This document shows positions 8,601 through 48,600 of a DNA stretch of 64,000 nt, one piece after another (positions within the stretch are counted from its first letter, which is position 1; every line of letters begins with the position of its first letter). This DNA comes from Euglena gracilis (lineage: Eukaryota). Location of the stretch: the NCBI GenBank assembly GCA_039621445.1, contig CP154954.1, positions 2,914,001-2,978,000 on the forward strand, in the 5' to 3' direction. A program made the translations under genes and the position numbers. The notes under the pieces were generated by a model that was given only the letters and a program-made list of their open reading frames with translations, was not told where the DNA came from and did not search any database.

Positions 8601-9078
8601 CCTCCAAGGTTTAGGGCCAATAGGTCTTCCTCGTTTCTAAACCTGGCCCCAGGACCCTTGCGATGGCCCTCAATGTGTGGTCCACGTTGGCTCGTGATCA
8701 ACTCAAAAGTCTGACAACCCGTACCCAGACTTTCCCCTCCCTCCTCCCTCCCTCCCTCCCTCCCTCGCTACACCTTTTGTGCACCTGTGCACTCTGCCCC
8801 TCGGACTGGTTGTAGTCCACGTGCAGCACGTCCAGCTTTGTCCCCGTCGACAGCACCCACTGCTTCACCTCCTCCTTGTACACCTCCGCGATGGGCAGGT
8901 TGCGGGAGGTACTGCGGGGGCGGATCCGCCCCGGCTTGGCGGCGGGCTTCGGCTCCTGCGCTGCAGCGGCCTCAGCTGGGGCGGGCTCCGCTCCAGCCTC
9001 CGCCGCCTCGGTCCCGGACTCCGCCTGCCCGGGGACGGCAGCCTCCCCCTCTGGGGGGACAGCAACAGGGTCGGCCAT
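5690..9078 (-). pseudogene. Decayed multi-segment gene of unknown function, copy 1 (starts MADPVAVPPEGE...)
   Basis: GC-rich first segment 9078-8698 preceded by CCTCAG|GTCACACACC-ATG. The frame reads through a TGA into SRANVDHTLRAIARVLG. Blocks at ~5700, 5910, 6390, 7295, 7580, 8080 and 8440 have colinear diverged counterparts in 17385-23520. Confidence 0.55.
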
Positions 9079-9622
9079 GGTGTGTGACCTGAGGCAAGGC
9101 GCCGTTTCAAAAAGGGGGGGAATGTGACCAGTGACTGAACTGCACGTGCAACAACTGAATTCAGCACATTGAAATGCCTTCTAACCTACGGCAAGCAATC
9201 CGCGCAAATTATGACAAAAAATCATCCGACTTAGGCATTTTCAGGCAAAAAATGGAAAAAGTGTGAAACGTTCTGACGGGACGCACAAAATGGATTATTC
9301 TGGTCCGTAACAACGGGGGGTATGGATATGCTACGTTTTCGTAATCTTTCATGGCGTATCTGTGTCAAAAACTGCCGAACACAAACCGGGGGTGACACAT
9401 CACGCATTCGGGTCGCGAAACAGTTAACACACTGGCGGTTTACTGTTGGACATCCGTAGGCCTGCTTTTTTGGAAATCCAGAAGGTGTCTAGAGGGGAGT
9501 TGTCAACTTTTTTCTTTTGGCGAACATGCACCTGGTTATGGCGCATCGAATGATCCATAAAATAAAGTGTGGTGTGACTTGTATCAAAAGTTACTAAACC
9601 GTCGCCTCATCAGCAAATCCGC

Positions 9623-10690
9623 TCAGTCGGACCCCTCGAAGGGGTCCGCCGGGACGTACACACGAGCCGCCCTCGGCGGCACCGTGTCCCGACTGCTGGT
9701 GGCCGCCCCACGCCCTGCGGGGTCCGCCGGTACCCGCCCGCCCGCCCGCGGAGGTGACTCGTCGCCCGCTGGTGATTCGAATCGCGACCGTCGAGTCGGT
9801 CGCTCAGGCAGGGACCCCTCGGACGAGGACTCGGCAGCCACGGACAACGGCAGATTCGCGGTGCGCCTCCAGCGGGCGTGCGCTGATCTCCGAGACCAGC
9901 TCCAGGAACGCCGGCAGGTCGCTCCGCACCAGCCGTGCGGACACCCGGTGGATGCGGCCCAGCAGCTGCTCCAGCGACGGGTACCCCAGGTACTCCGGGA
10001 TGGCGTCCACCGCCGTCCGCATCATGGCCATCACGCAGCAGTCGTGGGTGCGGATCACCATCCGGGGGTTCGACGTCATGGCCCTCTTCCAGAAGTTGTC
10101 GAACCACAGGACGCAGCTCCGCCCCTCCGACTGCTGCCACAGGTCCTCCAGCCGCTAACAGGCCCGCTGTCGCCGCCACTGCCGGTTCCACATCGGCTCC
10201 TCCGGCAGGATCCCACTGGGCCGCAGCAGCCGGCTGGCCGCCCGGTGCCTGGCCAGCAGCGCCTCGTGCTCCTCCGCCACCACCCGCTGCGCCGACCGCG
10301 GGCAGGCGTGCTGCCGCAGCGCCCGGTACACCGCCCAGGCGTCCTTGAGCAGCAGCTCAATCCGCGGCCGCCGCGGCTCCCGGGCCAGCTCCTCCAGCAG
10401 CGCCGCGCCCCCCTCCGTCCGCAGCGGCACCCGGGTGTGGGCCACCTGCACCACCAGGGTCTGCAGCGGGTGGCCGCGCTGCACCACCGCCGCCACAAAC
10501 TCCTCGTAGCTGGTGGCGAAGTGGGCCTTCACCAGCTGGCCCAGCACCTTCCTGGCCTCCGCGGCCAAGGCGGCCTCCTCGCTGTAGCCCTCGTAGCCAC
10601 GGCGGCGGGAGTGGGTGCTGCTGGCCTGCAAGGACTCCATTCAGTCCTCCCCAGGTCTGCCGGCACGCCGCCTTTTCACCACCACCTCAA
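9623..10690 (-). pseudogene. 'CVLWFDNFWK' family protein, putative DDE-type transposase fragment
   Basis: ORFs 10640-10155 and 10079-9804 are in the same frame, separated by one TAG (10157-10155). Very GC-rich. Aligns by eye with 30330-32380 and 42631-42950 (ELLLKDAWAVYR..HACP vs ELLLRDA*VLYRTVRHRDCP; CVLWFDNFWK vs CVLWYDNFWK). Confidence 0.65.
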
Positions 10691-13600
10691 ATCTGTTAAC
10701 TTCACACCCCCGTTGTCGCCACCCTGTCCACATCACTCATACAGACACATTACACGCTACATATCCCACAATCCTGTGTGTCATTTCTTTTATTTGGAAC
10801 TGTTTGTGCGCGCAAAATGCGCAAGTCAACAAACAAAAAAGCACACATTAATACACCGCTGTACCCTGCCTGGCCATCCCCCATGTACGTCAACTCCAGA
10901 CAGGGGATACCGGCCATACACCACCATAGAGCCTTAGCCACCCAGCACGTAACACACACTCTCAAATGGTGAGCAGCGTAGCTTCCCATGGGTCATAGCG
11001 TCTCCACCAGCCATACAAATCACACCCCCACTGACACAACGAGTGAATGACAACGTGCAGGTCAATAGACTGGCAGCACAACGCCCTCTGGGTCGTTAAA
11101 CAACCACTTTTCATTTCTGACACAATCTGGGGCGTCAACCACCCTCTCAGCAGCACAGTCAATCACAGTGGGAATAATCGTTTGATGCGCGCATTTGCCC
11201 AAGTGTGCAGTGCGCCACAAACAAAATTTATTCCGTACACCAATTAGAAAGTTCCAATCACCAGGCATTTCTTCGCCCTTGTCCAAAACAGGGTGTCACA
11301 CCCCTCTCCAGACACACCCAATTACATTGTAATTCATAAGTCATGGCACCCAACACACCATCACAATAATTTCGAAATTCATCAAGGGTGTCTGATTTCA
11401 TCGCCCGGCAAACGTTCAGTATCCACAGGTCACATTTGGACACCCAAAAGTCAAAAACCGTACGCCGTCAGATCTGGCCAGTTGGGTGCCGCGGGGTGGT
11501 GTGGGGTGGAAGAGGGTGTCGGCGGGTGTCCCACGGACAGTGTGCAGACAACCATCTGCGGAGAGGGAGGTACAAATGTTCGCGCGCCCGTTTGTATTCG
11601 AAGGGGTTCGAATTGCCCAGCCCTAACGAGTTCCGTCCGCGATCACAAAAATTTCTTTTGGCAGGCAGGGTACAGGGTCCCAGGGGTTACAAAAAAATGG
11701 TTACATTTGCGCAAATGCGCCCATCCTAAAGGGAAAACCCTTAAGTGCGAATTCGGCTGCCTAAGCCCCGGCCCAGAACCCAAAATTGTCATTGTTAAAA
11801 AAAATGTGAAATGCAATTTTTTTTGGCCCCCCAATTTTTCTGGCGCTTTGAGCAGAAAAAAAATTGTTTGTTCGGGGGAGGGGGGTCCTGACTATACCAT
11901 TGCTTAAGGTTTGTCTGACCCCCAGGGGGGTGATTGGCTGGTTTTTTAGGAGTGGTTTTTGGCTCCAGACGCCCCCCCCCCCCGGGAGGTTGGCCACGAA
12001 TGCTCGAAAGTGGCCACCCGGCGCGGAAGCCACGGGAATTTTTTTGAAGTTTCTGGCCTTTTCGGCCCGAGTGCCCCTGTGTGCACTGTGGCTTTTTGTT
12101 TGGTGCCTTTTATCCCTTCTTCTGTTCCCTTCTTCTGGCTGTTTTTCGCCTCTGAACCTTTTTTCTGTGTACGTGGAGGTGGCCGGAGCCTGGCGGGACT
12201 TACCTTTTGTTTACTTCTATGTCCCACCCTTAAAACACTCAAACCCGCCGCAGTTCAGCCACTTTCATCTCACCCAAGCCCTTGTGGGACACTGTGGTGG
12301 CATGGTGGATGGAGACCCTTGATGGCAGGTGCGTCCAAAAATCCAACAGACATGGAGGGAAGGTGATCGATCGGCAGCCTTCAAAACACCTTCACAAACT
12401 TCCCCCCAAATAATATACCCCGCCCCTGGCCTGCGATTTCAGCTGCCCAAATAATGTACCCCCAGCCACACTCCTTTATATAAATCAAGCAAAGCGGAAG
12501 CTCATCAAATTCCCTCTGAAAAAAAGCATATTTTAAAATTATGCTCGGTACAACAAACCTACCAAGGCCCTACTGGTGCGACCCTCGCCCAGTGAAACCC
12601 CTCCCCCAAATGGTATACCTGGTGGTGTTTTATTATACAGGTATCCAAAACTTGGGCCCAGGGTGGGTACTTGAGTCGGGGGGGGTGTATTATTGGGGAA
12701 ATTCTTCAAGCTCAAAAAGACACCCAGAGTTCCCCTTTTCACATAATATCTGGACTTTTCATATTTCTCCTTTTATTTTACGTGATCTCCCATTTGCCCA
12801 CCATTTGGAACCTGGCGATGCATCATGCATCATGCGCCGAAAGCCTGGTGCCTGATGGCTGCCCCCTCCCTCCTGATGTACACGTCTCGGGACAGGTGAT
12901 GCATTGGTCCATTGGGTCCATGTGCTTTTCCCCCAAGGGCAGGTCGGTCAATGGGGCAGTGCATTTTTTTTAAGGACTGCCCCATTATGGACCGTCTTAG
13001 GACTAAGGACCTGCCAATGGCCGGTCTGGGCGTTGAACAGGGTTGAAAATGAAAAATTATGAAATAAAAAACCCCGCATTTTTTGACTTTTTGGGTGGAT
13101 GAGCGATGGCCTTTCTTCAATGGGAATGAAAACTTCAGATTATCACCATGACCCCTGCCCCGTTCCCAAATTTTTTCCCAATCGCGAGCGATTGGATCCC
13201 GGCTTTCTGAACCACTTCTGGTTGGCCCCTAACTCCCACCAGGTCCGAGGTATTCAGCCAACAATGGGTGCAAACTGGGTAGGATTTGTCACCCCCCCCT
13301 CTGGTATTCAACAAACAAAGGAGGAGGCAAACAAGGTGTTGTCCCTCCTTGGTTGCATTTTAGTATTGAGAATGATGTGCTGGAAGAGGTTCGTTATATG
13401 CATTTGCCGCTTCCCTGCCCTGCTTTTTTTGTTATTGTGGCTGCCTGTTCCAAAGCCAAGGCGGTTCTTCCCCACTCATCTAATATCAAAAAGTGACATA
13501 TTTGAACCGGGTCTGTTCGCCTGGGAGCCATTGGGGATGAACCTTGTTTTACCCTCAGGGAACTCCACATCCTGGGGCACCAAATCCATCACGCATTTAT

Positions 13601-15028
13601 TATTATTTTTTCTCATCAAGGGGCCAAACCTTTTGCGACGGTCTGAAAATTTCCACCTTTTGCAGCTGGCCTTCGCTGATCTGTGGTGATTCGCTGTGCC
13701 CCGAAAAGCCACTCGGACAGCATTGAACAATGCCCAGTACAATGGAGAGGGCACCCCCCCCCCCCCCCCCCCCCCAAACCCCCACCAAAAAACCTGGCGG
13801 GGTGCCAGGTTACCAAAAACGATCATTTTTTTTTTTGCCCCCCCCCCCCCCCGTAGGTTATTCGGGCATTCACAGGGTCAAGGACCTGTGAATGTCCATG
13901 TTAATTTACCGGGATTTCATGCAGACTTGTCGTTGCAGATTGAGCCATTTCTTAAGGTTTTTGAGCTACTTGTGTGTGGGACCCGAAATTTGTAACATAT
14001 CAAGTGCCCTGGACGAGTTATGGCTTTGGCCTTTTTGTTAGCAAAGCTCGGGACTTAAAGGGACTCGTCTCACGTATCTCAAATTTGAAGCTGTGGCCGT
14101 TTTATGGTGTTTTTGAATCATCGGATTTATTCATTTATTCATTTTCCTTCTATTTTTTGAATTTTTGTTATTTTCCACCATCTTGGTGAAAATTGATTTA
14201 TTGCATGGTAAAAAGTGTGTTTACTGCAACTTTGAGGGGTTTTGAAGGAATGCCGCCCAACACTGTACTCTGGCCGTTTGCTTCTTTGCAGAAAGCAACC
14301 AATTTTAACCAAATTCTGGTCAAATTTTCTTAAGCAACGCCCTGCTGCATACCTTGTGCACTTTTTCTGTTGTTAGATTACAAAATCTTTGACAAGAGCG
14401 AGTTTTATTTTTTTCCAGCCGCCTGAAAAGTGGCTGGTCAGTAACAGATTTTCGCTTTTGGGGGTCCAAAAATGGGCCAAAATGGGTCAAAAATGGGGGA
14501 AATGGGTCGCAAAAGGGATCGTCAGGGCAAATTTGGGGTCGAAAAATCGATATTTTTTTTGCATAATTGGCAGTTTTTTTTTGGACATTTTTGCGCTTTC
14601 AATTTTGTGATACCCGTTTCGACCCCGGGTCGGGCTTAGCTCCAGCCCTGGCACCCCCAAGGGGGTAAGCCAACAGCCTTTTTCCAACCAGCCCAAGCTC
14701 TCCAGCCTCTGAGCTGGACCCCCCATGGGTCCTAAAGGAACGCCCTTGCATGCAGAAGCCACACCACATGCGTCGGTTAAAATAGCACATGTCTCAAACC
14801 ATTAATTTTATTTGGCATGGTTTTATTGAATCCACCGACGCACTGTGCAGAGGGTGAATGGGTTTCACGGAGTGCCACACTCCGTCAGAATCCCATGTCA
14901 GCATCCCCAATGTCGTAGATGGAGAACCTGTTCTATAACATTGCAGTGAAGGGGGGGGGACCTCACTACAACATTACGTCAAACCGGTGGAGAAGAAAAG
15001 CACGTTGCTGCCCAATGGTTGCCAAGAC

Positions 15029-15216
<188 letters not shown>

Positions 15217-18200
15217 TGCACTTAACTCAAAATACCTCCCCCCCCCCCCCCCCCCCCCCGCCTGCCCCTACCCAGTCGCTCCAATCTTGCGCTGCGCATT
15301 GTGTTCCATTGCACTGCACCCCAGCGATGCCACACCTGGAGCTGTGGTGTATGGCGGGCTTCCATTGTTGTGTTATGCTCTGCTGTTGTTCTGTGTTGTG
15401 TGCTGCGCCGTGCCCATCACACGTATGGGGTGGTACCAGCCAACAGTGCCTAGGCAGTGGTGTTGTTCGATGATTCAAACAGAGGTATGCGGATAGATGT
15501 TAAGATTAAAATTATTGACCGGTAAATAATTTGGTTTTCTATATTCTCAGAGAAAGGGCGGGCTTCAGCTTCTTTTCCGCATTTGCATTCATTTCACAGA
15601 TTCATGAGCTGCAAAATGGGCTGACTGTTGCCAGGCTTAAATCCAAAACGCAAAGCCATTTGTTTCTTGCCAGCTGACACACCCCGTATCAACTGCACTT
15701 TTCCCATTCCCAAAATGCCATTTTCTTTGTGGTTCAGTGCACATGACATGGCGTGTCCATGACCCCCCCCCCCCCCCCGTGTCAACCGCACTTTCCCCAT
15801 ATTTTGGCGTGTCAGGACGGGGGGGGGGGTAGGAGGGTGGTGTGGAATGGGTTCACCCAGTTAGTCTAACGTTTATGGTAGGGTTTAGGTTTGGTGTCAC
15901 CCTCCCCTCAAATGAACCCCCCAATATAAACCACCTGGGGGCTTTGTTTGGTGACCAAGTATGACCCCCATGCCGATAAGCATCGCAGAAGCGGCACAAG
16001 ACAGGAAAAACCCCCAAAATGCATTGTTTTTTTTTCGACAGTTTTTCACGTCCTTTTTGTGGATGTTTAGACGGAAAGGTTGATTGAACTACCCACGAAA
16101 GGAACGATCGATGGAATGCCACTGATTGATGGTAATTAGTCAGCTTAGCCTCCCTGGTGCCCTTTGGACGGTATGTCTGTGTTGAGCCCCCCCCCCCCCC
16201 GCCATTTCTGAATTTGGAGTGATCCAAGGTTTGCTCTACAACAAAGACGGAATACTGCTTTTCTAGTTTCCAGGAGAAGGTCCGAGAGGCACCCCGGAAG
16301 CACCAGGTTCCAGGCAGCTGAGGTGGGTGTTTCTCCCAAGTATGTTATTCGATGTTTTCGGTCGCTGTTTCCAAAGGCCATGTTGCGTTCATCCACCCTG
16401 GTGATGAATCAGATTCCAAACATCAAATGCTTCTTAACTTTGATGTATCTTTTTTAATTTGTATATTAAGAATTCATTACCTGAATACCATCCAGCGCAC
16501 AGACAACACAGGTGCAAGGGGTGCTGCACCCATGCACCGATGTGATGTGTCGGCACGAGATTCCCCATTTGTTTTGTGAGGTGTTGGTGCTCTAACAGGA
16601 AGAAATATCGACTGGTGGGCCGGGGGGGGGTCTAATGGGGAACATCCGGGACCACATCCCAAAAAGGTCAAACTGTTTCTTCCAGCGCTTGTATTCAAAA
16701 TGCTTTTCCCATTGACGAGATTTTGTCAGGAAGTGCAAAGATTTTTTTGGACGATTTGAGCAAAAAAATTCATGTCCCAAGACAAAAAGTAATGTGGTGT
16801 CAATTTAACCAGGTCACTATTTCGGGGGGGGTGTTCCCCACCCCCTGCTCCCCTTGAGTAGTGGAGGGCATGAACCCTGGACGGGATTTCAAGACCCCCA
16901 GGGAGGATTTTATTGGGAGCTTATACTTCATCAACCCGCTTAGCTGTGCATGTGGCATTCAACACCTCCCCACCTTGCTGAGGCTGGGTTCCACTGGGGG
17001 CTCGGTTGGTTACCCAACCGCAAATTTAGTTCCCTTACTGTACACAGAGAAGCCAAACTATCGGGCGGGTGGAATCCCTGGGTGCGATATGGGTCAATGC
17101 GCAGATTTTACAAGAGGCGTCCGAAGGACATTCGCAGAAACGGTTTTCTGCACACTGGCTGCCTGCTCTTTGGGAAGGCTTCTGGATTGATTGATGGTTG
17201 TATGACCTGAGGAGGTGCGGCGGTCCCTGTCTTGTGTTGTGCATTTTTTGAATTCTCTTCTTTTGTTGAGGGTTTGGGTTTGGGTTTGGTAACAATTCTT
17301 TCCCCTAGCAAAAAGGGGGCACGGGGTGCCAGCCCGTTGGTTTCCCTGGAGACCAGAGATCTCAGGCCTAACCACCCCTGCTCTTCCCCTGACAGGGTTC
17401 TCCGGCTAGCCTCCGCCACCGGCCCCCCCCCAAACCATATGGCCGCGCCGTTCAGCCTCATGCAGCAGCTCCCCGGTAAGTCCGACCTGTGGCTGCAGCT
17501 GCGGGGCTCCGAAGCTGCCCGAACCGCACCTAGGCCACATGATTATGGTACTACCCAAACCATGACGTTTCATCTCAACCGCCTCCCACCAGTTTTCTGT
17601 GCAAAAAGTCCATCTTTTTGAGCAAAATTCCCAACAAATATCCCCTGTTCCAACGTTGTCCCTTCCATCCAACTGTTCGAATTGTTGTCCCTTACGTATC
17701 TGTTGGAGTATTTGAGCATTCCAGGCGTGAGGGCAAAAAAAAACCCAAAAAACCAAAATCGGGAAGGTTTCATTTTGATTTTTCTGGGATTCCCACATCT
17801 GGAATTTTCTCCCCCACCCGAATTCCGCCTGAATCGTCCTTTGGTTGGTTATTGGACCTGTATGGATTTCTGTCGGCCCAAAAGAGGGACGTCTGTGCAG
17901 GGGAGGGGGGGGGGTTGTAAGTTGTGCCTCAGAGTTCTCCAGAAGGTCCTCATTATGCGCTCAGTTGTTGGCGATGGAAGGCAAATAAAAATGGAAAATG
18001 GTTTTTTTCTTTTCCTTCTTTTTTTTATCCCTTCCTGGCGTCTGGCCTTTGTTCTTTTCATTTGAGGGTGCCCCCCAAATTTGTCCCCACACCCAGTCTT
18101 GTATCCAATGTTGACCAAGCGCATAGGGGGGGGGTTGCTGATTTTGTTATGATGTTTGCAGAGCAACTGCTGCATGGTTTTGGCACCAAAGGGGGTTCCA

Positions 18201-19445
18201 GCCTCGCGACCCCCCCCCCCCTTGGCCCCATCATGAAGAGAATTTTAATTCTTGTCCAGCCCCTCCGAACGCCAGCTGGACTGCAATGTATTTTGCCTTC
18301 GAAGGTGCACGCATGGGTGAAAAAAAGGGTAAAATGGGTAAAAAATCGACTGCCTCCTTCAGAATTTGAATCAAAATCGATTTTTTGTGTAATTGCTGAT
18401 TTCCAGGCCTTTTATTTTTTTTTTGAGGTGTCCAGTTCGAGCCCAAGTCGGGCCACGTTTCAACCAGGAGACCTTATTTCCGGGGGTTGATCCAGCGGCC
18501 TGTATGAACCTTTTCCAGCCTCTTGAGCGGGACCCCCCCCCCCAGTGGGGGACGCACTGTTTGGGATGCTTTCTGGAGGTTCGAATCCTGTGGTCTGCCC
18601 CCACTCTCCATCTTGCAGGCTCATCACACTCACCTGGTGGGAGGGGGCATTGCTGGCGTAAATAGCAAGCGTGGGCACGCAACTGTCAGTGGAAACATTT
18701 GAATCGCTTGTGCCGGTGCATTCAAATTGGAAGCGATTCCCCCAAATAAGACCAAGGTCTACGTTGGGTCCGTTGTTTTTAAACCCTGGGGGGTGGGCTT
18801 ATTTTTGGGAGTCAACTTTTTGTAATTTTTGTTTGAAAAACCATCCTGCGGAAGGTCAGGCCTAAAAAGGGACAATTTTTGGCCTCGAGCCAAATTTTTC
18901 CAAAATTTCCTCAAAAGGTGCCAATTTTAATGCATTCAAAAAGTGCAGAAAAGAAAATATGTCAAAGAAATGGTTGCCCATTTTGGGGAATTCTCACCGT
19001 TTTTGAAGGCGCTTCCGAAAATCCCGAGAGCAGGGTAGTTTTTTTTTTTTGCTGAAAAGCTGCACCACGGGTGGATTTTTCGGGGGGCTAATTTTGGAGT
19101 GTCTTAATTTTTTTTTTGCAATGTGTTCGAAGAAACTGAGAAAGCCAAGTCGGGCTGTGGGCAGCGACTAACCTTGTGCTAGAAAGTTTGTTTACTTTTT
19201 GGGAAAAAGGCACTTCTTCAAAATTTGAATGCAAAATAGCCGAAAAGTTTGACATATCCCAGGGTGTTCCTGGTCTTTGTGCCGTCCACGCTTCCGGTCA
19301 TGGATCCCTCAAGACATCATTGCAACTGACTTTCAAATGACAAAAGGTGAGGGTGCTTCAGCTGGCTGGCAGGACCCACTGATTCTGAAGCCAACAAATG
19401 GGTTGGTTCTTCTGAGCTGCTGCAGCCAAAAGTGAGGGGCTGCGG

Positions 19446-20029
19446 CAGGGCAGAACGGGAATCGGCCGAACAGCCAGGGTGGTGGGTGGGGGGGGGGTCG
19501 TTCCCCCCCACCTCTTCCCGTATTTCCAGGAGCACCAATTTTTGGACCCGAAAAAGATTTTCCGGCGCCGGGTGTTTTTTTGACTCATTTTGGGACCCAT
19601 ATAGGGGGTCCCCCCCCAAACCCCCCAAAACCCCATTTTTTCACACCTTCCAAAAATTCAACATTTTCTCAAAAATGTTGATTTTGAGAGGTTTTTGAAG
19701 CAAAAAATGCCTTCGAAAGTCCAAAAAAATTTCAACGAGAAAAAATGTCAGTAAAATTTGACTGTGCCAAAATTTGTCCGCTTTTTTTGACCTTCGTTTT
19801 TTTCACCCCCCCCTAAAAACAACCAATTTTTAACCCTGAAATTTTTGAGATTTTTTTTTGCGAAAAAAAATGTGGGTTTCCATCAAAAAATCATGTGTTT
19901 TGGGTTCATTTTTCAAAAAAATTTCAAAGATTTTCCCGGCCAATCCCCGTTTTCCTGAAATCGGTGAAAGTGCTGTGGTGGGTGGGGGTTTCGACCCCCC
20001 CCCCCACCAGGCCTTCCCGTTCTGCCCTG
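19446..20029 (+). mobile_element. hAT-type MITE (584 bp)
   Basis: 15-bp perfect TIR CAGGGCAGAACGGGA...TCCCGTTCTGCCCTG; 8-bp TSD GGCTGCGG/GGTTGCGG (7/8). Confidence 0.88.
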
Positions 20030-22412: not shown

Positions 22413-22715
22413 CAGGCTTGTGCTTAGTCGGGTGCCTACCCCACGGGGGAGTGGGTGGGTGCTAGGGGCAGGCACCCCATGGCACCCGATCCGACCCCCC
22501 CCCCCCAGGGGGGTTAGGGTTTTGGGGGGTGCCTGCCCCTAGCAGGCAACCCCCCTCTGACCCCGGCGCCGAAGGTGCTGGGGGCCTGGGAAAGGCCATT
22601 TTCAATGAAGATTTTCTGGCCCCCCCGGACCCCCCCCCCCCGGGGGGTGCCTGCTAGGGGCAGGCACTCTATAGCACCCACCCACCCTCCCCCCTGGTCG
22701 GTAAGCACAAGCATG
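22413..22715 (+). mobile_element. hAT-type MITE (303 bp)
   Basis: TIR CAGGCTTGTGCTTA...TAAGCACAAGCATG; TSD CACCAAAC/CACCAAAT; paralog near 7979 (CACCAAGCACCTATG) lacks it. Confidence 0.82.
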
Positions 22716-25481: not shown

Positions 25482-25937
25482 ACCCCCCCCAAAATAAGAC
25501 CCGGGTCTTATTTTTGGGTCCGTTGCTGGAAGCCTCCAGGGGGGGTCTTATTTTGGGTTGGGTCTTATTTTTGGATTTTTTCTTGACCGACCCGGGTCCG
25601 AAAAAAACACCATTTTTTAGGTTCCCAAGAGGACTAAAATTTCTCTTTCGGCGCCTCGCGCCATGTGAAAATTGGTGTAAATTGACATTTACCGTGTTTT
25701 TTGAACTTCAAAAATCCGAAAATTTTTGAAATTTCATCATTTTTGTGTATGAAATTGGGTTTTTTGGTCATTTTTCAGGGGAAAAGTTCACCGTCCCCGG
25801 CGCTTCGCGCCGTAAAGGGGGGTCTTATTTATTGGGGGGGGGTCTTATTTTTTGGATTTTTGCTCGATCGGCCCAGGGGCGGTCTTATTTTTTGGGGGGG
25901 TCTTATTTTTTGGGGGGTCTTATTTTGGGGGGGGGTT
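25482..25937 (+). mobile_element. TA-flanked MITE (Tc1/mariner/pogo-type) with AAATAAGACC / GGTCTTATTTT repeats
   Basis: Ends ACCCCCCCCAAAATAAGACC...GGTCTTATTTTGGGGGGGGGTT, flanked by TA on both sides. The local paralog at ~26130-26155 (GGAATGCCC-TA-TCTAA) shows the empty site. A related decayed copy lies at ~18740-19110. Confidence 0.78.
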
Positions 25938-27252: not shown

Positions 27253-27512
27253 GGCAGCTCCTCAACTATCGGAGGGCCCCCCCCCCAAAATCGTTTTTTA
27301 TTTGCGTTAATGGATGTAATAGGGTTAGGTGCGCGACTTAGGCTTAGGGTTAGGCCTAACTTGTACACCTAACACCCGCCTATAAGTTAGGCCTAACCCT
27401 AAGCCTAAGTCGCGCACCTAACCCTATTCCATCATTAACGCAAAAAAAATTATCTTGACCCCCACTCCCCACTTAATGGCCCCCCTCCCTGGGGGGCCAT
27501 TAAGTGGGGAGC

Positions 27513-29504: not shown

Positions 29505-29912
29505 CAGGGTTCGATATAAGGAGGGCGTACATGGTTTAGGTGGGGGGTGTCCCCCCCACCCCCCCCTCCTGGCCCGCAGGGGGGGTCCGGACCACCCCCC
29601 CCACCTGCAAGGGGGGTCCGGACCGACCCTCGGGGGGTACCCGGGACCCCCCCCAAAAAGGGTCAATTTTTTCCTCCGGCGCTTTGCGTCGATTTTTTTT
29701 TGCATTTTTGGCCAATGTTTGCCCAAAAAGTGCCCAAAATGGCACTTTTGGTCGTTTTGGGGGTCAAAAATTTTCGGCCCGGCGCTTCGCGCCGGGCCAA
29801 AAATCGATCACCCTGACCGCGCCACTGTTTAAGGGGGGGGTGTCAGCCCCCCCCCCCTCCTGGCCTGCAGGGGGGGGTTCGGACCCCCCCCCTCTCCTTA
29901 TATCAAACCCTG
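29505..29912 (+). mobile_element. hAT-type MITE (408 bp)
   Basis: TIR CAGGGTTCGATATAAGGAG...CTCCTTATATCAAACCCTG; TSD GGAGGGG (7 bp; length uncertain because of G-runs). Confidence 0.85.
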
Positions 29913-30893: not shown

Positions 30894-32077
30894 CAGGTTG
30901 CCAACACAAAAAACATACCCGCCAAAAAGCAAATTCCCCTTTCCATTTTGTCCCCAGTTGCTCTCATGCCCCCAAAACTGAGCACTGCCGACAGAGCGGC
31001 TTTGCGCAAGCGCGTGGAGACGTATCTCTCTTTTGTTCCACCCTGGTTGCTCAATAAGATTGCAAAATCACGAGAAAATATCCAAAGCTACAGTGCAAGG
31101 TATATACCCGGCTTGTACACAATTCACACCAGCCACTTATCCCAGGTATGGCATCCAGATTCAAAGAACGTTGCACGCTTGATCGCAAAGTTGGATCGGG
31201 ATCCAATCAGCAAAAGGCAAAGAAATATTCAGCACGGTGTGCGACGTTTGCAATAAATTATATTCCATTCCGAAATTCCCACAGGTTTCGAAGAGGTATA
31301 TTAAAAATGGCAATGAAAAACCCTTTTTGGAGTTGCAAACAAATCGCCGACGAGCATTTCCTCCGAGTTAGCACCGCATTGTTAGCCCGCCCAGCAGGGG
31401 CAGTGGTTAAGGCGTGTTTGTCAATCGTTATGCTTATGCTTTTTTTGTGTGAATTTCAGATACCGCCAATTCAGAATTCATCCGTACAATCCTACGGAAG
31501 GCGGGCTTGTGCTGCCAAACCGCAGCAAGGAAGCCATTACTGTCCTCGGTGAACAAGCGGAAACGCCTGGTGTTTGCACGCCAATATCCATTGTGCAGGA
31601 CTGCGGGCTACCGCTTCCAGCAGGACGGGGCTTCTCCCCACCGTGCGCGGAGTACCACAGCGTGGATGAGGTGGAAGCGAGTGCTGCACTTCAACGGAGG
31701 GGTTTGGCCACCACAGTCGCCAGACCTTAACCCCATTGAACATTTGTGGCCCATGGTGCTGCACAAGTTGCGTGGGCATGCGTTTGCGGGCAAAGACCAG
31801 TTGTGGTTGGCTTTGCAAGCTGCCTTCGCAGAAATCTCCCCCGAACAGGTCAAAGCATTTTATGACAGCATGCCTAACTGCATGCGGGCTGTCATTGCGG
31901 CTCGCGGTGGACAAACCCGCTACTGACCTTCCCATACCCCGCCCTTTTGCATGACGGTTGCATTCGCGGCAAATCCAGCGCTTGATTGGCCGCATTGCTG
32001 CTGATAGCTTTACTCACCAGATGGGGGGTATGTTTTTTGTGCTGTCAGGGGGGTATGTTTTTTGTGTTGGCAACCTG
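30894..32077 (+). mobile_element. Tc1/mariner-superfamily DNA transposon (DD37E spacing), internal-deletion derivative
   Basis: 27-bp perfect TIR CAGGTTGCCAACACAAAAAACATACCC...GGGTATGTTTTTTGTGTTGGCAACCTG; TA TSD (30892-93, 32078-79); transposase remnants inside. Confidence 0.95.
30966..31926 (+). pseudogene. Tc1-like transposase, intron-containing, first catalytic D region deleted
   Basis: Removing GT-AG introns 31022-31058, 31100-31145 and 31237-31284 gives MPPKL...ISKATVQGMASRFKERCTLDRKVGSG...NPFWSCKQIA. Then IRTILRKAGL..AARKPLL..RLVFARQY is joined directly to FQQDGASPH...WPPQSPDLNPIEHLW...ARGGQTRY*. Confidence 0.88.
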
Positions 32078-35045: not shown

Positions 35046-36413
35046 CAGACATTCATTTAGTGTGGTACACCAAGGTTGCCATTTTGTGGTTCACTGTGGA
35101 CACCAAAAATTTTTGTGGTTCACGTATGGACACCAAAAATTTTTTTGTGGTTCACCTGTGGACACCAAAAAATTTTTTGCGGTTCACATGTGGACACCAA
35201 GAAAATTTCCCACCGCCTGCTGACATTTGTATTGTTACCTTTCTCCTCAACAGCGGTGAAGCAATCTTCTTTGAACATGTTTGCCCAACAGCGTTCGCAC
35301 CATTTTGAGAGGAAAAGGAGCAATTAATTAACCCATCAAAAATTCACCCCCACCATCAAAAACAATGAAGTTTATCGGTGAACTTCACCGGTGAACTACA
35401 CCGCCGAAAGTACCCCCCCCCCCTGGTGAACATTGGAAGTTCGGCAGCCACCCCCCCCCCCTGGTGGTCGGACCCCCTCGGCATGGAAAAATGGGGACCC
35501 CCCTGGTCAGCCAAGCCCCTCGGCACGGCATGCCGAACCATACCAATGAATTTGGTATGGAATCCTTTGGGAAATTCCGGCTGTCCGCCACGGTGGACCC
35601 CCCCCCTGGGGGACTGACCCCCTCGGCACGGCAAAATGGGACCCCCCCCCTGGTTGCCGAGGGTCCTCGTCAGACGTGCCGAACCTCCATTCACCGGTGA
35701 AGTCCACAGCCGCCCCCCCCCGTACTGCCTAACCTCCCATGTTTTGCTGCCCGAAGGGCGGCGAGACAGTAGCGATATCCAAAAGCAAAAATAGCCCAAA
35801 AGTTCAATGAAAGTTGAATTCTTAAGTTTTTGACCATTCTTGTGATGAACTTCACTGGTGGGTTCGCCGTGAAGTTCACCGTTGGGTTCGGCAGAGGGGG
35901 GGGTGGAGGGGGTCCGGCCCTGGTGAATTTTCAAACGGTGAATTTCAGCTAGGGATCTGGAGGCTGACCTTCTCCAAAGAAAAACAAAACCTCTTTTCCC
36001 ATATCGAAAAGAATATGGGCATAAGTTTCGACCCGCATGTCAAAATAACTGAGATTGGTTGAATTATGATCCAAACATTGGAATGTGGTGTTCGGTTTGC
36101 CATCAATTTGGCAGCATCCAAAGGTTTCAGGTGCTGAAAAAAAGGGAATGTGCTTGCGATGCCAACTATTCAATACAGGACTCGCACTGTCACAACACAT
36201 GAGAATTGAATTTTTTTTCCATCCTCAATCAAGTTCTGGCGCAACAAAAATTTTTGTGGACACCAAATTTTTTTTGTGGTTCACATGTGGACACCAAAAA
36301 ATATTTTGTGGTTCACCTGTGGACACCAAAAATTTTTTTGTGGTACACCTGTGGACACCAAAAAAAATTTGTGGTTCACACGACTTATGTGAACCACACT
36401 AAATGAATGTCTG
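35046..36413 (+). mobile_element. Non-autonomous hAT element (1368 bp) with ~30-bp subterminal tandem repeats
   Basis: 21-bp perfect TIR CAGACATTCATTTAGTGTGGT...ACCACACTAAATGAATGTCTG; perfect 8-bp TSD TTCCTGCC; empty site TTCCCGCC at 45263-45270; GTGGTTCACCTGTGGACACCAAAAATTTTT arrays at both ends. Confidence 0.95.
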
Positions 36414-36665: not shown

Positions 36666-36976
36666 CAGGGCGGTCTTTAAGGGACAGAAAAAAATTTTTT
36701 TTTCCTTAAGGACCGCCCCCCTTTCGGCCAAAGGGCCGACCAAGGGCCGGACTGGGACTTGAACGGGGTCCAAAATTAAAAAGTCCAAAAAACACAGTTT
36801 TTGATGATTTGGGTGGATGGGCGATGGTCCAAGGATGCCAAGAACCAGTTTTTTTCCCTGGTGTCGACCTGTTCTCACCGAATAATGCCAAATTTATTTG
36901 CCCATTTTCCTGTATATTTTTATTGAGTCTGCTGGGACAGCGGAGTTTTTTTTTTATTTGCTTAAGGACCGCCCTG
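36666..36976 (+). mobile_element. hAT-type MITE (311 bp), same family as 5322-5641
   Basis: TIR CAGGGCGGTCTTTAAG...CTTAAGGACCGCCCTG; perfect 8-bp TSD GTCTGGAC; absent from unit B (~45499). Confidence 0.93.
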
Positions 36977-37897: not shown

Positions 37898-39789
37898 AAA
37901 GGCAATGCACAGGCACTGGGGTGGCAAATTGCAAATTTTGCATATGAATATGAGACAAGCCAACCCTGTGCTGCCACTGTGCCAACCCATGTGGTTCTGT
38001 CTCTCTTGCCTCTCCCCCACCAGTATTGGCTTTTTTTTTTGACCCATTAGCGCCCCGCCCTGTGCCACGCGTGGCCTGTCCACCGTGCCAGGACAGCCGG
38101 TCTTGCTGAGAACCCCAGCCACTCCTCGAATCCGCAGGGGAAATTTCCCTTTCCGAGGATTCTGGGCAGCAATGTTGGCTCCCTTCTGCGATTACTTCCC
38201 TTTGGCCTCTCCCCATCCGATGGACGGTGTGGGCCACACTTGTTATTTCACACCAACATAAAACAGGGCACCACTGTGTCGACACGGTCGTCAGGACACC
38301 GCAGCAAGGTCAGGCATTTAGTATCGGTAGTAGTAGGGCCTTGCGATACCTTGGGTTTTGTGTCCGTCGCAAAGTTGCTCATCAGAATTGTGCAAAATCA
38401 GCAGATTAGTTTTTTTTTTGGAGGAAAGGAGAAGGTGGATCGGTCGTCCACGCCACCAGGCAGATGCTGATAGTGTCCATGGAAAAATCAATGTGAGGTT
38501 GTTTCTGGGGACCTCCGCAACTCCTCGGGGACATTGACGCCCCCCCCCCAAATGAATTGTCAAAAATCTATTTCCGGCCCGACTGTATTGACCCTGAGTG
38601 CACCTCAGTCTTGGGGGGGGTTCCAGTGACCCAAACTTTCTCAGACACCATCACCTGCATCAAACCCTACAGGATACCCAGAGATCCCACCAAACAGGAC
38701 AGATTCTCCCTACTGGCTTTTCACGTCAGTTTTCTTTTTTTTTTGACAAAATGTTTCCTCCAAAAAGTCTGATGGACACCAATAACCCGAAATGCTGTAA
38801 TTTTTTGTTGTCCTCTGAAATAGAAGCCATTTGACACCAAATTACTTTTCCAAAGCGCATTGAATAGATCCATGGATGTTTTTTGGATACTGCCAAGGTG
38901 CCAAAAAAGATTGGCCCAGAAAGTTTACAGGGGGTCAGTCCAAACCCCATCCTCCCAAGGGGTAGGTGTCTAATCCATGCCAGTCACCTGGCCTGGGCAA
39001 TTGGGACGACGGTTTGTTGGCGTGGCTGGCCCCACATTATCTTCCCCTCGCCCTCGGCGGCACCCCAAAACCAAACCTCTCCCACCCCCCTCCCCTGGTG
39101 TCTGCTACAGCTGCCTGTGGCCTGCAAGGTGCTGCCTTCATGTTTGACCGACGATGACAGCACCAAAGCAGTGACATTGGCCAGGCGTCTTCGACGTTGG
39201 GCAGACAGTGTGGTGAGGCAGGCTTACTGAGCTTCAAAGTGAGTGGCCCTTTGTGCAGAATGTGGTGAGACCACGTACACCTCCAGGCGGATTGCCTCCC
39301 AAAAAACTGATTGAAACATTCACAATTTTGCACATTTATTGCTTATTATGGGTTGTTGTTGGAGATAGGTATTAATGCAGGGGGGGGGAAATGCAACTTG
39401 CATAATTTGCATTTTTTTGCATAATCGGCTTTTCCCGAAATTTGCATTTTTTTGCATTTTTTTGCATTTTTTTGCATAAAATATTTTGTCCTGGAAAATT
39501 TTTTTTTGTTGTTGGTCGCCATGGTCCGTGGTCCCTCTGCAGTTGCCTGGGGTCTTTGATACTTTCACCCTATTAAAAGGCAGCTTTGCAGAGGAGTGGA
39601 TGTTTTCCGAGCTTGTTTTTGTCATTTCAGCTTGCATCATGGCCGACACTCAAGTGGAAGCAATTCTGGAAGGAGGTTTGGTGGACGAGGGTGAAGTCCC
39701 CCCTGAAGAAGAAGAAGAAGAAGAAGAGGAAGATTCACGTCAAAAGAAGAGGAAGTTCAATTACGGAGCGAAGTCAACTCCAAGCTCCC

Positions 39790-39849
39790 GTACATATTCC
39801 GGCTCCAAAAAACGTGTGGAAAATTTGGGTGGAGCCAGAATATGCTGCT
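39790..39849 (+). other. Predicted intermediate/non-conventional intron (GT...CT, 60 nt)
   Basis: Stem CATATTCCGGCTCC (39793-39806) / GGAGCCAGAATATG (39831-39844); +4..+6 CAT pairs with -8..-6 ATG; removal gives TPSSRCKQF. Confidence 0.75.
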
Positions 39850-41113
39850 GTTGCAAGCAATTCCCATTTGGTATTTTTGAAGTCCGAGGTGAGTCAATGT
39901 GGTGTGTGGCTTGCCAGAAGCCCATTGACCACCGCCGGAAGAGTGTTGCAAATCAACACGTGAAGCAAGCTGGCCATGTTGAATTGGCAAAGAAGAAGGC
40001 AACAAGACCAAAAGCTCCCTATGTATTTTTTTTTGTGTCTGACGACCGCTTCCTCACTTTCAGATTGCCACCCCAACGGCGGAGGTACAAGATGAAGCCT
40101 CGTCCACACAGAATCTGAATCCAAAAGTGCCTGAACGTGCAAAGGTGCGTTTTCCACATTCCATTCCAGGTAGATAATTTGTTTTTTTTTTAACAGGTTC
40201 AAGCTGATTTGAAAAAGTTGCTTACAGCAAGAACGGAAATCAACGATGTTCACGATGACCTTTGTGCTGCATTCCTAGCAGCAGGTATACTCTCCATGTT
40301 CGTAAATGTCCTGGAATGCCTCCTTTTTCTGGTAGGCATACCTTTGGAGAAGATCGCGCACCCCAGCCTGAGGGGTTTCTTTGGAAAGGCAACGAAGTTT
40401 TCAGGGTGTTATCCCAAGGACCAGAAGGACATGAAGCCTTCGGTGGAATGCGTCTACAAGGTGTTATGTTGCCCTCTCCCCCTTGTACTCTTTGACTTGT
40501 CTTTATTGGAAGTTGGTTGCATTGTTTGTGTTTCGGTTTCCGATATAAATTTTCAGTTCATGATCATTACTGTTTCCCGCACAGAGGCACGTTGCGGAGT
40601 TGCGGCGTCGTCTGGCGAACCAGGACGTGGCCGTCAGCTTCGATGAGACGACGGACAGCCGCGGACAGTCGGTGCTGCACATGATTGTCGCTTGCTGTCA
40701 AAGCTTGCAAGGGAAGGGGCCGTTTTCTCGCCACGAGTGGAGGCTTTGCTAGGAAGACTGAAAGATGGAACACCTCTGCGATCCACTTTGTATTTGGCTG
40801 CAAAAAGAGGGGCAAGGTATTGTGACACCGTCATGGACAGGTGGCCAAAGCAATGGCAATTTTATCGAGAAATTCGAATTCTCAATCCTCGGAATCTTCC
40901 GGACATGTCCCAAGATCCTGCACAATACCCCATGCTTTCGTTTCCTATGAATGATGCAGAATTTCAAGGGGATTGGCAGCGGTATTGCCGCGTGGAGCAA
41001 GTGTTCCCCTCAGATTCCGTTTCGCTTATGCAGTATTGGGCGAAGCACAGTGGTGCCCTCGCCCAAGTTGCCAAGTTTTTACTGACCATTCCCACCACCT
41101 CTGCTGACGTTGA

Positions 41114-41179
41114 AAGCACACACTTCTGCATGTGCGGAATCCAAATGTTGTGCTATAGAATGCAGAAGGGTGTGCCGCC
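41114..41179 (+). other. Predicted euglenid-type non-conventional intron (AA...CC, 66 nt)
   Basis: Stem GCACACACTTCTGCAT (41116-41131) / ATGCAGAAGGGTGTGC (41160-41175); +4..+6 CAC pairs with -8..-6 GTG; removal restores the hAT motif SADVE|RSFS. Confidence 0.88.
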
Positions 41180-41888
41180 ACGTTCGTTCAGCCTTGCTGG
41201 GTGTGTTGATACCAAATTGCGTTCCACGTTGTGTAATGAAACGCGACGTGCCGCCGCTTTGTTGATGTTCAATGGTGACCTTGAGGGACGATTTGCGTAG
41301 ATTAAACAAATCATGTTGATTTTGAAAGCTTCAGTGCTTGTTGTTGTCTCCTTGGGGGTCTTCTTTGTGAATCATTGACGGGCACGCCGGCATTGTCACA
41401 TGTTTACAGATTTAGGCAGCAAAATTCTGGTGTATTCCAGCCTTTTTTCAACAGTTTTTTTGCAAGTTGCATTTTTTTGCATTTTTTGCATTTTTTTTTG
41501 CATTTTTTTGCATTTTTTTGACTTGCATAATTTGAAGGGCCCAGTTGCATTTTTTCCCCCCCTGATTAATGTTTGGGTGTTGGTTCGGGTTTGGGTTACC
41601 CCCCCCCCAATGTCCACCCTTGATTTTTTTATTTGGGTGGGATCCAGGTATTTTCGAATGTTGAACCCCAGGGGGGAGAGTGGATGCTTCATCTAAGGTT
41701 GTCGCAAAAAAAAACAGGTGGTTATTTGCATTTGCAAACTTGACGTCCCCATACGTCTCTGACCTCAAAGTGCAATCTTGCCCGGGGCCATTTGAATTTG
41801 ACCCTATTTTTGGATATGACCTCCCGAGAATAGTGAATGTAAGTTAGGCACCCCAACATTGGCCACCCAATCCTCGTTTTCAAATGTG

Positions 41889-45600: not shown

Positions 45601-48600
45601 TTAATTCTTCGGATATGAAATATTTGATTCTGGACAATGTATTGTAATGAATGGACGATGTATTCTCTGATGAAACTCTGAACAATGTATTCTGAAAAGT
45701 GGTGTCACCAGAATTTCGGCGAAAATCAAAATTCTTTTCCAGATGTTCACCCAAAGAAACATCAGCCACCCGTTCTGAAGGCTTTCCCCAACTCTTCAGC
45801 AATTATGAAAAATGTTTGTGATGTTCAACTTCTACGTTCGTGCGCTGTTCTTTTTTGCCTCCATGCAGGCGGACCAGCATGCACCCTACAGTTGGCATGC
45901 TGGGGTGGGCAGGACCACCACTGTACGCTGCTCAAGCGGAAGCATTGCTTGCTTCAATCAGAAACGATTCCCCCAAATGTCCTCAGAATTAAGTCACCAG
46001 TTTTTTTGGAGGAAGCTAATTCTTTTTCGCACCGACCTACCCCCATGCTTTTTTTAAGTTTTCTGGTGCTGTGCTTTATTTGTAATTGGAAAAGTAATTT
46101 TTCCTTTTGGTGATGATGTGAAACGAAGAGAATCGTTTTTCAACGGCGTAAAAGCACAGGGATCCTTCCATTTCCTGAAAAGGAAATTAAATGAAATTCA
46201 TGGAGGATCACGGAAAAATGGCGCGAGGCCATTTTTACAGAATTCACAAAAATTCACGGATATTCACGGATGAGGCAGAGGGATATGATTTGATATGGAA
46301 TATGAATTTTGACTTTTTTTTAAAGTTCAAATTCAAAGTTTAAATTCACGGAAAATCACGGAAAATCACGGATACATTTTGGCCTCGATCAGCACGGAAA
46401 CCAGAGAAACCCTGAAAGGCAATGCACAGGCACTGGGGTGGCAAATTGCAAATTTTGCATATGAATATGAGGCAAGCCAACCCTGTGCTGCCACTGTGCC
46501 AACCCATGTGGTTCTGTCTCTCTTGCCCCCCCCCCCCCCCAGCATTGGCTTTTTTTTTGACCCATTAGCGCCCCGCCCTGTGCCACGCGTGGTCTGTCCA
46601 CCGTGCCAGACTTCCGGTCTTGCTGAAAACCCCAGCCACTCCTCGAATTCACAGGGGAAATTTCCCTTTCCGAGGATTCTGGGCAGCAATGTTGGCTCCC
46701 TTCTGCGATTACTTGCCTTTGGCCTCTCCCCATCCGATGGACAGTGTGGGCCACACTTGTTATTTCACACCAACATAAAACAGGGGACCACTGTGTCGAC
46801 ACGGTAGTCAGGCCACCGCAGCAAGGTCAGACATTAGTATCGGTAGCAGTAGGTCCTTGCGATACCTTGGGTTTGTGTCTGTCGCAAAGTTGAAGGGGGG
46901 GATCAAAAGCATCTCATCAGAATTGTGCAAAATCAGCAGGTCAGTTTTTTGGAGGAGAGGAGAAGGTGGATCGATCGTCCACGCCACCAGGCAGATGCTG
47001 CTAGTGTCTGTGGAAATCAATGTGAGGTTGTTTCTGGGGACCTCCGCAACTCCTCGGGGACATCGACCCCCTCCGAAATGAATTGTCTGAAACCTCTTTC
47101 CGGCCGGACTGTATTGACCCTGAGTGCACCTCAGTCTGGGGGGAGGTTCCAGTGACCCAAACAGGATTCTTTCTCAGACACCATCACCTGCATCAAATCC
47201 CACAGGATAACCAGAGATCCTACCAAACAGGACAGATTCTCCCTACTGGCTTTTCACAGCAATTTTCTTTGACAAAATGTTTCCTCCAAAAAGTCTGATG
47301 GACACCAATAACCCGAATTGCTATAATTTTTTGTTGTCCTCTGAATAGAAGCCATTTGACACCAAATTGTTTTTCCAAAGCGCATTGAATAGATCCATGA
47401 ATGTTTTTTGGATACTGCCAAGGTGCCAAAAAAGATTGGTCCAGACATTTTACAGGGGGTCAGTCCAAACCCCATCCTCTCAAGGGGGAGGTGGGTGAAT
47501 CCATGCCAGTCACCTGGCCTGGGCAACTGGGACGACGGTTTGTTGGCGTGGCTGGCCCCACATTACCTTCCCCTCGGTGGCACCCCCAAAACCAAACCTC
47601 TCCTCCCCCTCCCTGGTGTCCGCTACAGCTGCCTGTGGCCTGCAAAGTGCTGCCTTCTTGTTTGACCGATGAAGACAGCACGGCATTGGCCAGCCGTCTT
47701 CGACGTTGGGCAGATAGTGTGGTGAGGCAGGCTGACTGAGTGGCCTTTTGTGCGGAATGTGGTAAGACGAGGTACACCTCCAGGCGGATTGCCTCCCAAA
47801 AAACTGATTGAAACATTCACAATTTTGCACATTTATTGCTTATTATGGGTTGTTGTTGGAGATAGGTATTTATATTTGGGTGTTGGTTCGGGTTTGGGTT
47901 ACCCCCCCCCCAATGTCCACCCTTGATTTTTTATTTGGGTGGGATCCAGGTATTTTCGAATGTTGAACCCCAGGGGGGAGAGTGGATGCTTCAGGGGACT
48001 TCCCTCCCCGATCTTTAAAGAACGCGCGACATGACTCCCTCACCCGTACTCACGTTGCAAAATTTTGGTGTATCTCACAAATTTCCAGAAGTTTTTCTGT
48101 CGAGTTTGCCAAATTTTGGCATGCACAACCAGTTATGAGACGTTCACGTGTTAATTGTGAATAAGAATTCGGTTGAAAGCATTTGGGGCAGGGATTTAAA
48201 TACAGAAAAGGTCTTCATTTTCTGCATCTAAGGTTGTCGCAAAAAAAAAAACAGGGTTGTCCGGAGAATTGTCAATTGGTTATTTGCATTTGCAAATTTG
48301 ACGTCCCTATACGTCTCTGACCTCAAAGTGCAATCTTGCCCGGGGCCATTTGAATTTGACCCTATTTTTGGATATGACCCCCCGAGAATAGTGAATGTAA
48401 GTTAGGCGCCCCAACGTTGGCCACCCAATCCTCGTTTTCAAATGTGCAGGGGGGGAAGGCGTTTTGCATTTCGGGGGGAGCTCCGTAGCTCCGGAGCTCT
48501 GCAAAAATTTTTACATGCAATTATCGTTTTTTTTTGCATTTTTTTACGTTTATTTTTCATTTATTTGCATCGCGTTTTTTGAGGGTCCATGTTGCGTTTC

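Follow-up and report, generated by a model that had tools for sequence, protein, structure and literature searches.

A hairpin-forming 60-nt segment in a hAT-like transposon gene of Euglena gracilis resembles a short nonconventional intron

Nonconventional (NC) introns are the majority class of introns in Euglena, and a sequence code for them was defined only in 2025. To our knowledge, the machinery that removes these introns has not been described. The segment at 39790-39849 of the 64,000-nucleotide stretch of DNA analyzed here (the window) raises the question of what kind of intron it represents, or whether it is an intron at all. It had been annotated initially as a second structured intron of a transposase gene, with a GT donor and no AG acceptor, and was placed among the 'intermediate' euglenid introns that have one canonical border. 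As a candidate NC intron, it lies on the plus strand, is 60 nt long and in phase 1, and has the borders GT...CT.

The letters of the window at 39790-39849 are GTACATATTC...ATATGCTGCT, so that the segment starts with GTACAT and ends with ATGCTGCT. The segment is in frame, as had been claimed, and begins at the second base of codon 51 of an ORF with its ATG at 39639. This ORF is open through the whole segment and reads ...NYGAKSTPSSR, 20 further residues and then CKQFPFGIFEVRGESMWCVACQKP... The upstream coding part (39639-39789, plus strand) carries the ATG, an acidic/basic stretch, NYGAKSTPSS and the first base of the R codon, and the downstream coding part (39850-40022, plus strand) encodes a family-conserved zinc-finger region, xQFP...EVRGESMWCxxC...H...H. 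The expected change in the product was also reproduced: the read-through ORF gives TPSSR, 20 residues and CKQF, and removal of the 60 nt gives R-C-K-Q-F-P. The borders of the candidate are slidable by 2 nt, as GT is found at 39790-39791 and again at 39850-39851 (a GT/GT direct repeat). No stop is present in any of the three frames of the segment, and thus its sole coincidence with coding is a length that is a multiple of three.

The segment folds into a hairpin, which consists of a 5' stem arm at 39793-39807 (positions +4 to +18), a 22-nt loop at 39808-39829, in which positions 39819, 39824 and 39825 vary among genomic copies, and a 3' stem arm at 39830-39844 (positions -20 to -6) followed by a 5-nt spacer at 39845-39849, all on the plus strand. 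The 14-bp stem of the initial annotation was recovered, since the two arms pair at 14 of 15 positions, with C39800/A39837 as the single mismatch. The same was true of the register: at +4..+6/-8..-6, CAT pairs with ATG (C-G, A-T, T-A), and 11 of 12 further pairs follow. RNAfold, which added three weaker pairs at the extreme ends of the segment, gave a folding energy of -22.3 kcal/mol, as compared to a mean of -11.95 for shuffled sequences (z = -3.71), and 1 of 200 shuffles folded as well. When hairpins were counted that had at least 14/15 Watson-Crick pairs, a loop of at most 60 nt and arms that were not of low complexity, 9 loci were found in the 64-kb window versus none in each of 10 block shuffles. 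The hairpin segment at 39790-39849 is not a chance occurrence. A search for Rfam matches returned none.

We used protein alignments to compare the gene with its relatives. The 128-residue read-through ORF served as the query, and its matches included 2 of near-equal length, 3 longer ones and 52 representative ones, with identities of 28-53%. With P0013 excluded as a low-complexity match, the alignment set comprised 54 relatives, of which P0043 starts downstream of the site, leaving 53 that span it. A gap of 20 residues was located exactly at the site of the segment in 51 of these 53 relatives, and the same gap was present in all five relatives of a smaller alignment made with MAFFT. The family shares the motif TPxxR(A/V)xQ(F/Y)P...EVRGExMWCxxC...KSxAxxHxKxxxH. 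Without the 60 nt, the spacing of R-C-K-Q-F-P equals that of R-A-R-Q-Y-P in the relatives, which restores the family pattern R-x-x-Q-F/Y-P, and the local alignment score against P0011 increased from 425 to 454. P0020 and P0050, both of one subfamily, deviate from this pattern in that each has 11 unrelated residues at approximately this position, between R(A) and xQFP. It is possible that this 11-residue stretch is a short intron that has been read through, at the same position in another lineage. As judged from these alignments, the segment at 39790-39849 is a discrete insertion that is absent from 51 of the 53 spanning relatives. A search of metagenome contigs for the exact 24-nt exon word beside the 3' junction gave no matches, and a pattern search for related loci gave 618 pattern matches, none of which was confirmed by tblastn.

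The features of this insertion were compared with those published for NC introns. The report by Milanowski et al. (2016; PMC4770533) describes 55 introns, in all of which positions +5 and +6 are paired with -8 and -7. CAG/CTG was found in 33 of them, a purine at the intron start in 51 and at the start of the downstream exon in 55, and a pyrimidine at the end of the upstream exon in 49 and at the end of the intron in 49; positions 2 and 3 of the downstream exon were more commonly A and C. The candidate resembles euglenid NC introns in several respects. These introns have at least one border that is not GT/AG, and the candidate has GT...CT; its +4..+6 are paired with -8..-6, and the stem runs on inward from there. 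The spacers of the candidate are 3 nt (GTA) and 5 nt (CTGCT) long, the lengths established genetically in PMC12501133, and add up to the 8-nt difference between the 60-nt segment and its 52-nt hairpin. Both junctions are of the type pyrimidine|purine (C|G and T|G), with a purine at the start of the downstream exon. The candidate further shares with NC introns a short border repeat (GT/GT), the lack of a polypyrimidine tract and the presence of GT-AG introns in the same gene. Positions 2 and 3 of its downstream exon are T and T.

The likeness does not extend to the paired triplets. In Nomura et al. (2025; PMC12501133), the genetically defined code is given as 5'-N3CDG.../...CH'GN5-6|R, a stem behind the triplets is required, and the code covers 61.2% of E. 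agilis NC introns. The test intron of that study was no longer spliced when single bases of CAG or CTG were substituted, and even paired changes at the middle position mostly failed. The candidate has CAT/ATG, in contrast to CAG/CTG or the accepted CGG/CCG, CGG/CTG and CTG/CAG, and falls outside the CDG/CH'G code at its third pair, which is T-A and not G-C. As a CAT/ATG intron, it would belong to the 'unclassified' class, which in Dataset S8 of the same paper holds 187,325 of 649,158 E. agilis introns (28.9%). The candidate also differs from described NC introns in being very short (60 nt, at the short edge) and in lying within a transposon gene. According to Gao et al. (2024; PMC11170887), NC introns of less than 60 bp make up 0.9-1.25% of E. 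gracilis NC introns. Border slidability, by means of short direct repeats, was reported for 84% of E. agilis introns (PMC12501133).

A second comparison concerned the pairing of the intron ends. Gao et al. (PMC11170887) joined the terminal 10 nt of each end via U7 and folded them, and found mostly -10 to -2 kcal/mol for NC introns, whereas the same terminal fold was zero for 35% of GT-AG introns. By this 10+U7+10 method, the value was -3.2 kcal/mol for the candidate, whereas of the four GT-AG introns in its gene three gave 0 and one gave -1.5 kcal/mol.

A second structured insertion was found further downstream in the same gene, at 41114-41179 on the plus strand. It is 66 nt long and in frame, with borders AA...CC that are slidable by 1 nt. 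In BLASTP of the C-terminal ORF against P0022, ...VE and RSFSLAG were separated by a single gap, of exactly 22 residues, so that this insertion splits the hAT C-terminal motif E|RSFS. Its stem is formed by 41116-41130 and 41161-41175, starting at +3/+4 and ending at -5/-6, and the triplets are CAC at +4..+6 and GTG at -8..-6. The terminal pairing amounts to -9.3 kcal/mol and the fold of the whole segment to -27.3 kcal/mol. The 3' junction (C|A) fits the pyrimidine|purine rule, and the 5' junction (A|A) misfits on the exon side. Position 41128 is T in other copies, by which one apical pair of the stem is weakened. Conserved motifs of one gene are thus interrupted by two independent hairpin insertions, both in the NC register. 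No further copy of the 60-nt or the 66-nt insertion was found elsewhere in the 64-kb window.

Four GT-AG introns had been predicted in this gene, all on the plus strand: 40023-40063 (41 nt), 40145-40196 (52 nt), 40285-40335 (51 nt) and 40461-40584 (124 nt). Each has the predicted borders, and removal of all four together with the 60-nt segment leaves 261 codons open. The first two were assigned from their borders and the open spliced frame, and P0011 aligns unbroken over the junctions of the last two (AAG|IPL in the case of 40285-40335). The 261-codon spliced frame aligns with residues 34 to 252 of the 428-residue P0011. The homology ends after about 40690, and P0011 extends at least 176 residues beyond it. 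We observed a frame break at 40690-40760, after which the hAT C-terminal block is in another frame. This break looks like an internal deletion rather than an intron, as far as the alignment can tell, with most of the transposase core absent. Thus, what had been named a 'transposase' is an internally deleted copy, which loses its homology to P0011 after about 40690.

Domain searches with Pfam gave weak hAT signals. The C-terminal ORF contains the hAT block RSFSLAG...NGD.E.RFA, which aligns with P0022, and matched Pfam Dimer_Tnp_hAT (PF05699) with E = 0.0011 and 19.2 bits, under the cut-off of 21.4, the motif being split by 41114-41179. DUF659 was matched weakly (E = 0.017). The zinc finger was likened to zf-C2H2_12 / zf-BED clusters in the Protein Atlas, which we take as a lead. 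A search for longer relatives of the C-terminal ORF yielded 550 candidates, none of them at E <= 0.01. Pfam was scanned with 130 of the 170 window ORFs of at least 110 aa; the 40 omitted were the element's own ORFs, which were scanned separately, and some overlapping ones. Among the 130 ORFs scanned, no host gene was found that could serve as a positive control, and the only Pfam match was a Tc1/mariner-type transposase fragment at 31453-31923 (HTH_Tnp_Tc3_2, E = 3.7e-9; DDE_3, E = 3e-6).

The gene is carried by a hAT-like non-autonomous element of 2,187 bp (39378-41564, plus strand) with inverted ends and a flanking duplication. Imperfect terminal inverted repeats of 21-22 nt, of the form CA-G(7-9)-A(3-6)-TGCAACT, are located at 39378-39398 and 41543-41564, and an exact 7-bp duplication, ATTAATG, is located at 39371-39377 and 41565-41571. 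The sequences flanking the element (39300-39376 and 41565-41691) adjoin each other at a paralogous empty site at 47797-47993 on the plus strand, which indicates that 39378-41564 is an inserted element. The element resembles the hAT superfamily in its terminal inverted repeats, its flanking duplication, its N-terminal BED-like zinc finger and its C-terminal hAT dimerization motif, as well as in the numerous internally deleted copies of its family. In contrast to the 8-bp duplication that hAT elements make, the duplication here is 7 bp; the dimerization domain scores below the cut-off, and this copy has lost the greater part of its catalytic core. On the basis of its structure, we classify the window copy as an internally deleted, non-autonomous hAT-like element. 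The element has GCAAAAAAA-type subterminal repeats, and it is inserted into another repeat, of which an empty copy is found 8 kb downstream.

Genomic copies of the element were examined in two DNA runs, X1 and X2; the GT-AG introns are kept in their contigs, which identifies both runs as DNA. These runs contain many further deletion derivatives, with joints that skip 376-1665 nt. Word depth at the ends of the element was up to about 100 times that of its interior; in X2, it was 6,000-20,000 at 39550-39669 and 41230-41349 versus about 130-470 inside. The end-heavy depth and the many joints indicate that most members of the family are short, MITE-like deletion derivatives; some of these show low-level transcription. 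Over 39790-39849, word depth was similar to that of the flanks. Together with the lack of another copy in the window, this indicates that the 60-nt segment is not itself a dispersed repeat family.

Contigs of X1 and X2 over 39794-39904 revealed one form that was near-identical to the window and two diverged forms. The changes listed within the segment were an A inserted after 39819, T to A or C at 39824, T to C or G at 39825 and a G inserted after 39825; in the diverged variants, the last base, 39849, is changed from T to C and is still a pyrimidine. The stem had been expected to be conserved in other copies, and among the differences listed for the two diverged variants, none falls in the 29 stem positions covered. 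This comparison is a small sample of the best-supported differences, with 22 more beyond those listed. None of the DNA contigs listed joins 39789 to 39850, and the contigs show presence of the segment only.

We also placed RNA reads on the element, using about 5% of each of two raw runs, X21 and X22. This sample gave 34 reads from X21 and 31 from X22, most of them 90-95% alike and located at the ends of the family. In these 34 + 31 reads, depth was zero over 39850-40209, and neither 39789/39850 nor any GT-AG intron was bridged by a joint. Three X22 reads over 39776-39821 were unspliced and had foreign sequence on both sides; they come from a rearranged transcribed copy without the 3' arm and are thus uninformative on splicing. 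In three X21 reads, 41112 is linked to 41194 via 10 letters of other sequence. This joined form was not seen in the two DNA runs. It lacks 5 nt relative to the product predicted for splicing of the second insertion and thus may represent a diverged paralog rather than a splicing product.

From these observations, we lean toward the view, with modest confidence, that 39790-39849 is a short NC intron of the euglenid type that merely starts with GT, and that it would be 'intermediate/nonconventional' in name only. According to Milanowski et al. (PMC4770533), a 5' GT in these introns is a preserved purine and does not mark kinship with spliceosomal introns, and 'intermediate' introns are no separate type. 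The initial label thus fits in part: the register and the junction rules agree with NC introns, whereas a separate intermediate type is not upheld by that source and CAT/ATG lies outside the code. The accompanying claim, that different intron types coexist in this gene, is borne out to the extent that GT-AG introns and a second hairpin insertion without GT-AG borders share it. In the segment itself, the description of a GT donor without an AG acceptor was accurate, as it ends with CT and no AG acceptor yields an in-frame product.

We regard it as quite possible, if on balance doubtful, that the segment is instead a palindromic DNA insertion that was never spliced and that either adds 20 residues or lies idle in a dead transposon copy. 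Double-strand-break repair, template switching or a very small foldback element could have produced such a palindrome. With a length divisible by three and no stop, the segment could simply be translated, and the second insertion is in frame too; CAT/ATG fails the CDG/CH'G code tested in PMC12501133; the window copy is internally deleted; and the three X22 reads over 39776-39821 are unspliced, but these are from the rearranged copy that lacks the 3' arm. Against a translated insertion, the 60 nt split a motif that is kept in 51 of 53 relatives and the 66 nt split the hAT E|RSFS motif, and translated insertions at both sites would probably harm the protein. A never-spliced palindrome also leaves unexplained the exact margins of 3 + 5 nt, the pyrimidine|purine steps at both junctions and the purine at the exon start, and, among the differences listed, the stems are unchanged in two diverged variants in which the loop is changed.

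A conventional spliceosomal intron with a GT donor and a cryptic or non-AG acceptor would agree with the GT start and with the short GT-AG introns (41-52 nt) of the same gene. We consider it very improbable. The last two letters of the segment are CT, and use of the nearest AGs as acceptors (39837-39838 or 39856-39857) would make the intron 49 or 68 nt long and, in either case, put the conserved zinc finger out of frame. No polypyrimidine tract precedes 39849, and the GT-AG introns of the gene all begin differently from GTACAT (with GTATTT, GTGCGT, GTATAC and GTGTTA). Moreover, ss-invariant introns that start with GT carry the NC consensus and not the conventional one, according to PMC11170887. 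That the segment is a chance hairpin in ordinary coding sequence is scarcely credible: the open frame speaks for it and nothing else does, whereas no comparable hairpin arose in any of 10 shuffles, the fold has a z of -3.71 and the gap is clean in 51 of 53 relatives.

Transposon-derived introns (introner elements, MITE-like; PMC11282704) offer another comparison. They are similar to the present case in being short insertions with inverted-repeat ends and a flanking direct repeat, and in that the segment is absent from related genes. They differ from it in that the 60-nt and 66-nt segments have no other copies in the window and do not form a dispersed family. The literature searched contained no report of NC introns in hAT elements of Euglena.

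If the segment is a short NC intron, its history and removal may be pictured as follows. A hairpin-forming insertion would have entered the N-terminal zinc-finger region of a hAT-like transposase gene, presumably after this lineage split from the sampled relatives. By analogy with published Euglena work, the 15-bp stem from +4 to -6 would bring the two pyrimidine|purine junctions together in the pre-mRNA. The non-spliceosomal NC pathway would then remove the 60 nt, probably as a circle, and joining of ...AGCTCCC to GTTGCAAG... would restore the family motif. Full-length circular products of NC introns are reported in PMC11282704, with reference to Guminska et al. (2021). In this copy, the predicted intron is inherited baggage that is not under selection, and given that the copy is a deletion derivative, nothing requires the segment to be spliceable.

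The possible consequences depend on splicing. Conventional and NC introns together in one gene are already described as common by Nomura et al. (PMC12501133), and their coexistence here is thus of modest interest unless the segment is spliced despite the broken triplet rule. Were it spliced, the 60-nt element would be a naturally occurring substrate of near-minimal size that departs from the CDG/CH'G rule in its third pair, and it would allow a test of the extent to which structure can stand in for sequence. The gain would also be a dated one, with the intron found in one transposon lineage and missing from about 50 of the relatives sampled, a point of relevance to the idea that hairpin-forming insertions are the starting point of NC introns. 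Without splicing, the segment is no more than a palindromic scar in a dead transposon. A broader proposal, that both the 60-nt and the 66-nt segments are NC introns gained in a hAT transposon after divergence and that both are spliced despite having no G-C third pair, seems unlikely to us and is put forward tentatively. If this were true, the NC machinery would accept CAN/N'TG given a long stem behind it, partial retention of the in-frame segments would produce alternative forms of the transposase, and amplification of the transposon would spread NC introns through the genome.

We also scanned the whole window for candidates that comply with the NC code, using the pattern N3-CDG...CH'G-N5-6-R with 9/10 pairs and G-U allowed. 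The 3064 matches, versus 1659-1841 in five shuffles, were set aside, as the scan was too permissive and confounded by repeats. By the stricter hairpin count described above, seven of the nine loci are additional hairpins elsewhere in the window, at 22459-22545, 25487-25574, 27329-27417, 27464-27512, 29770-29804, 36325-36375 and 36668-36718, and the remaining one, at 41116-41175, lies within the same gene as 39790-39849.
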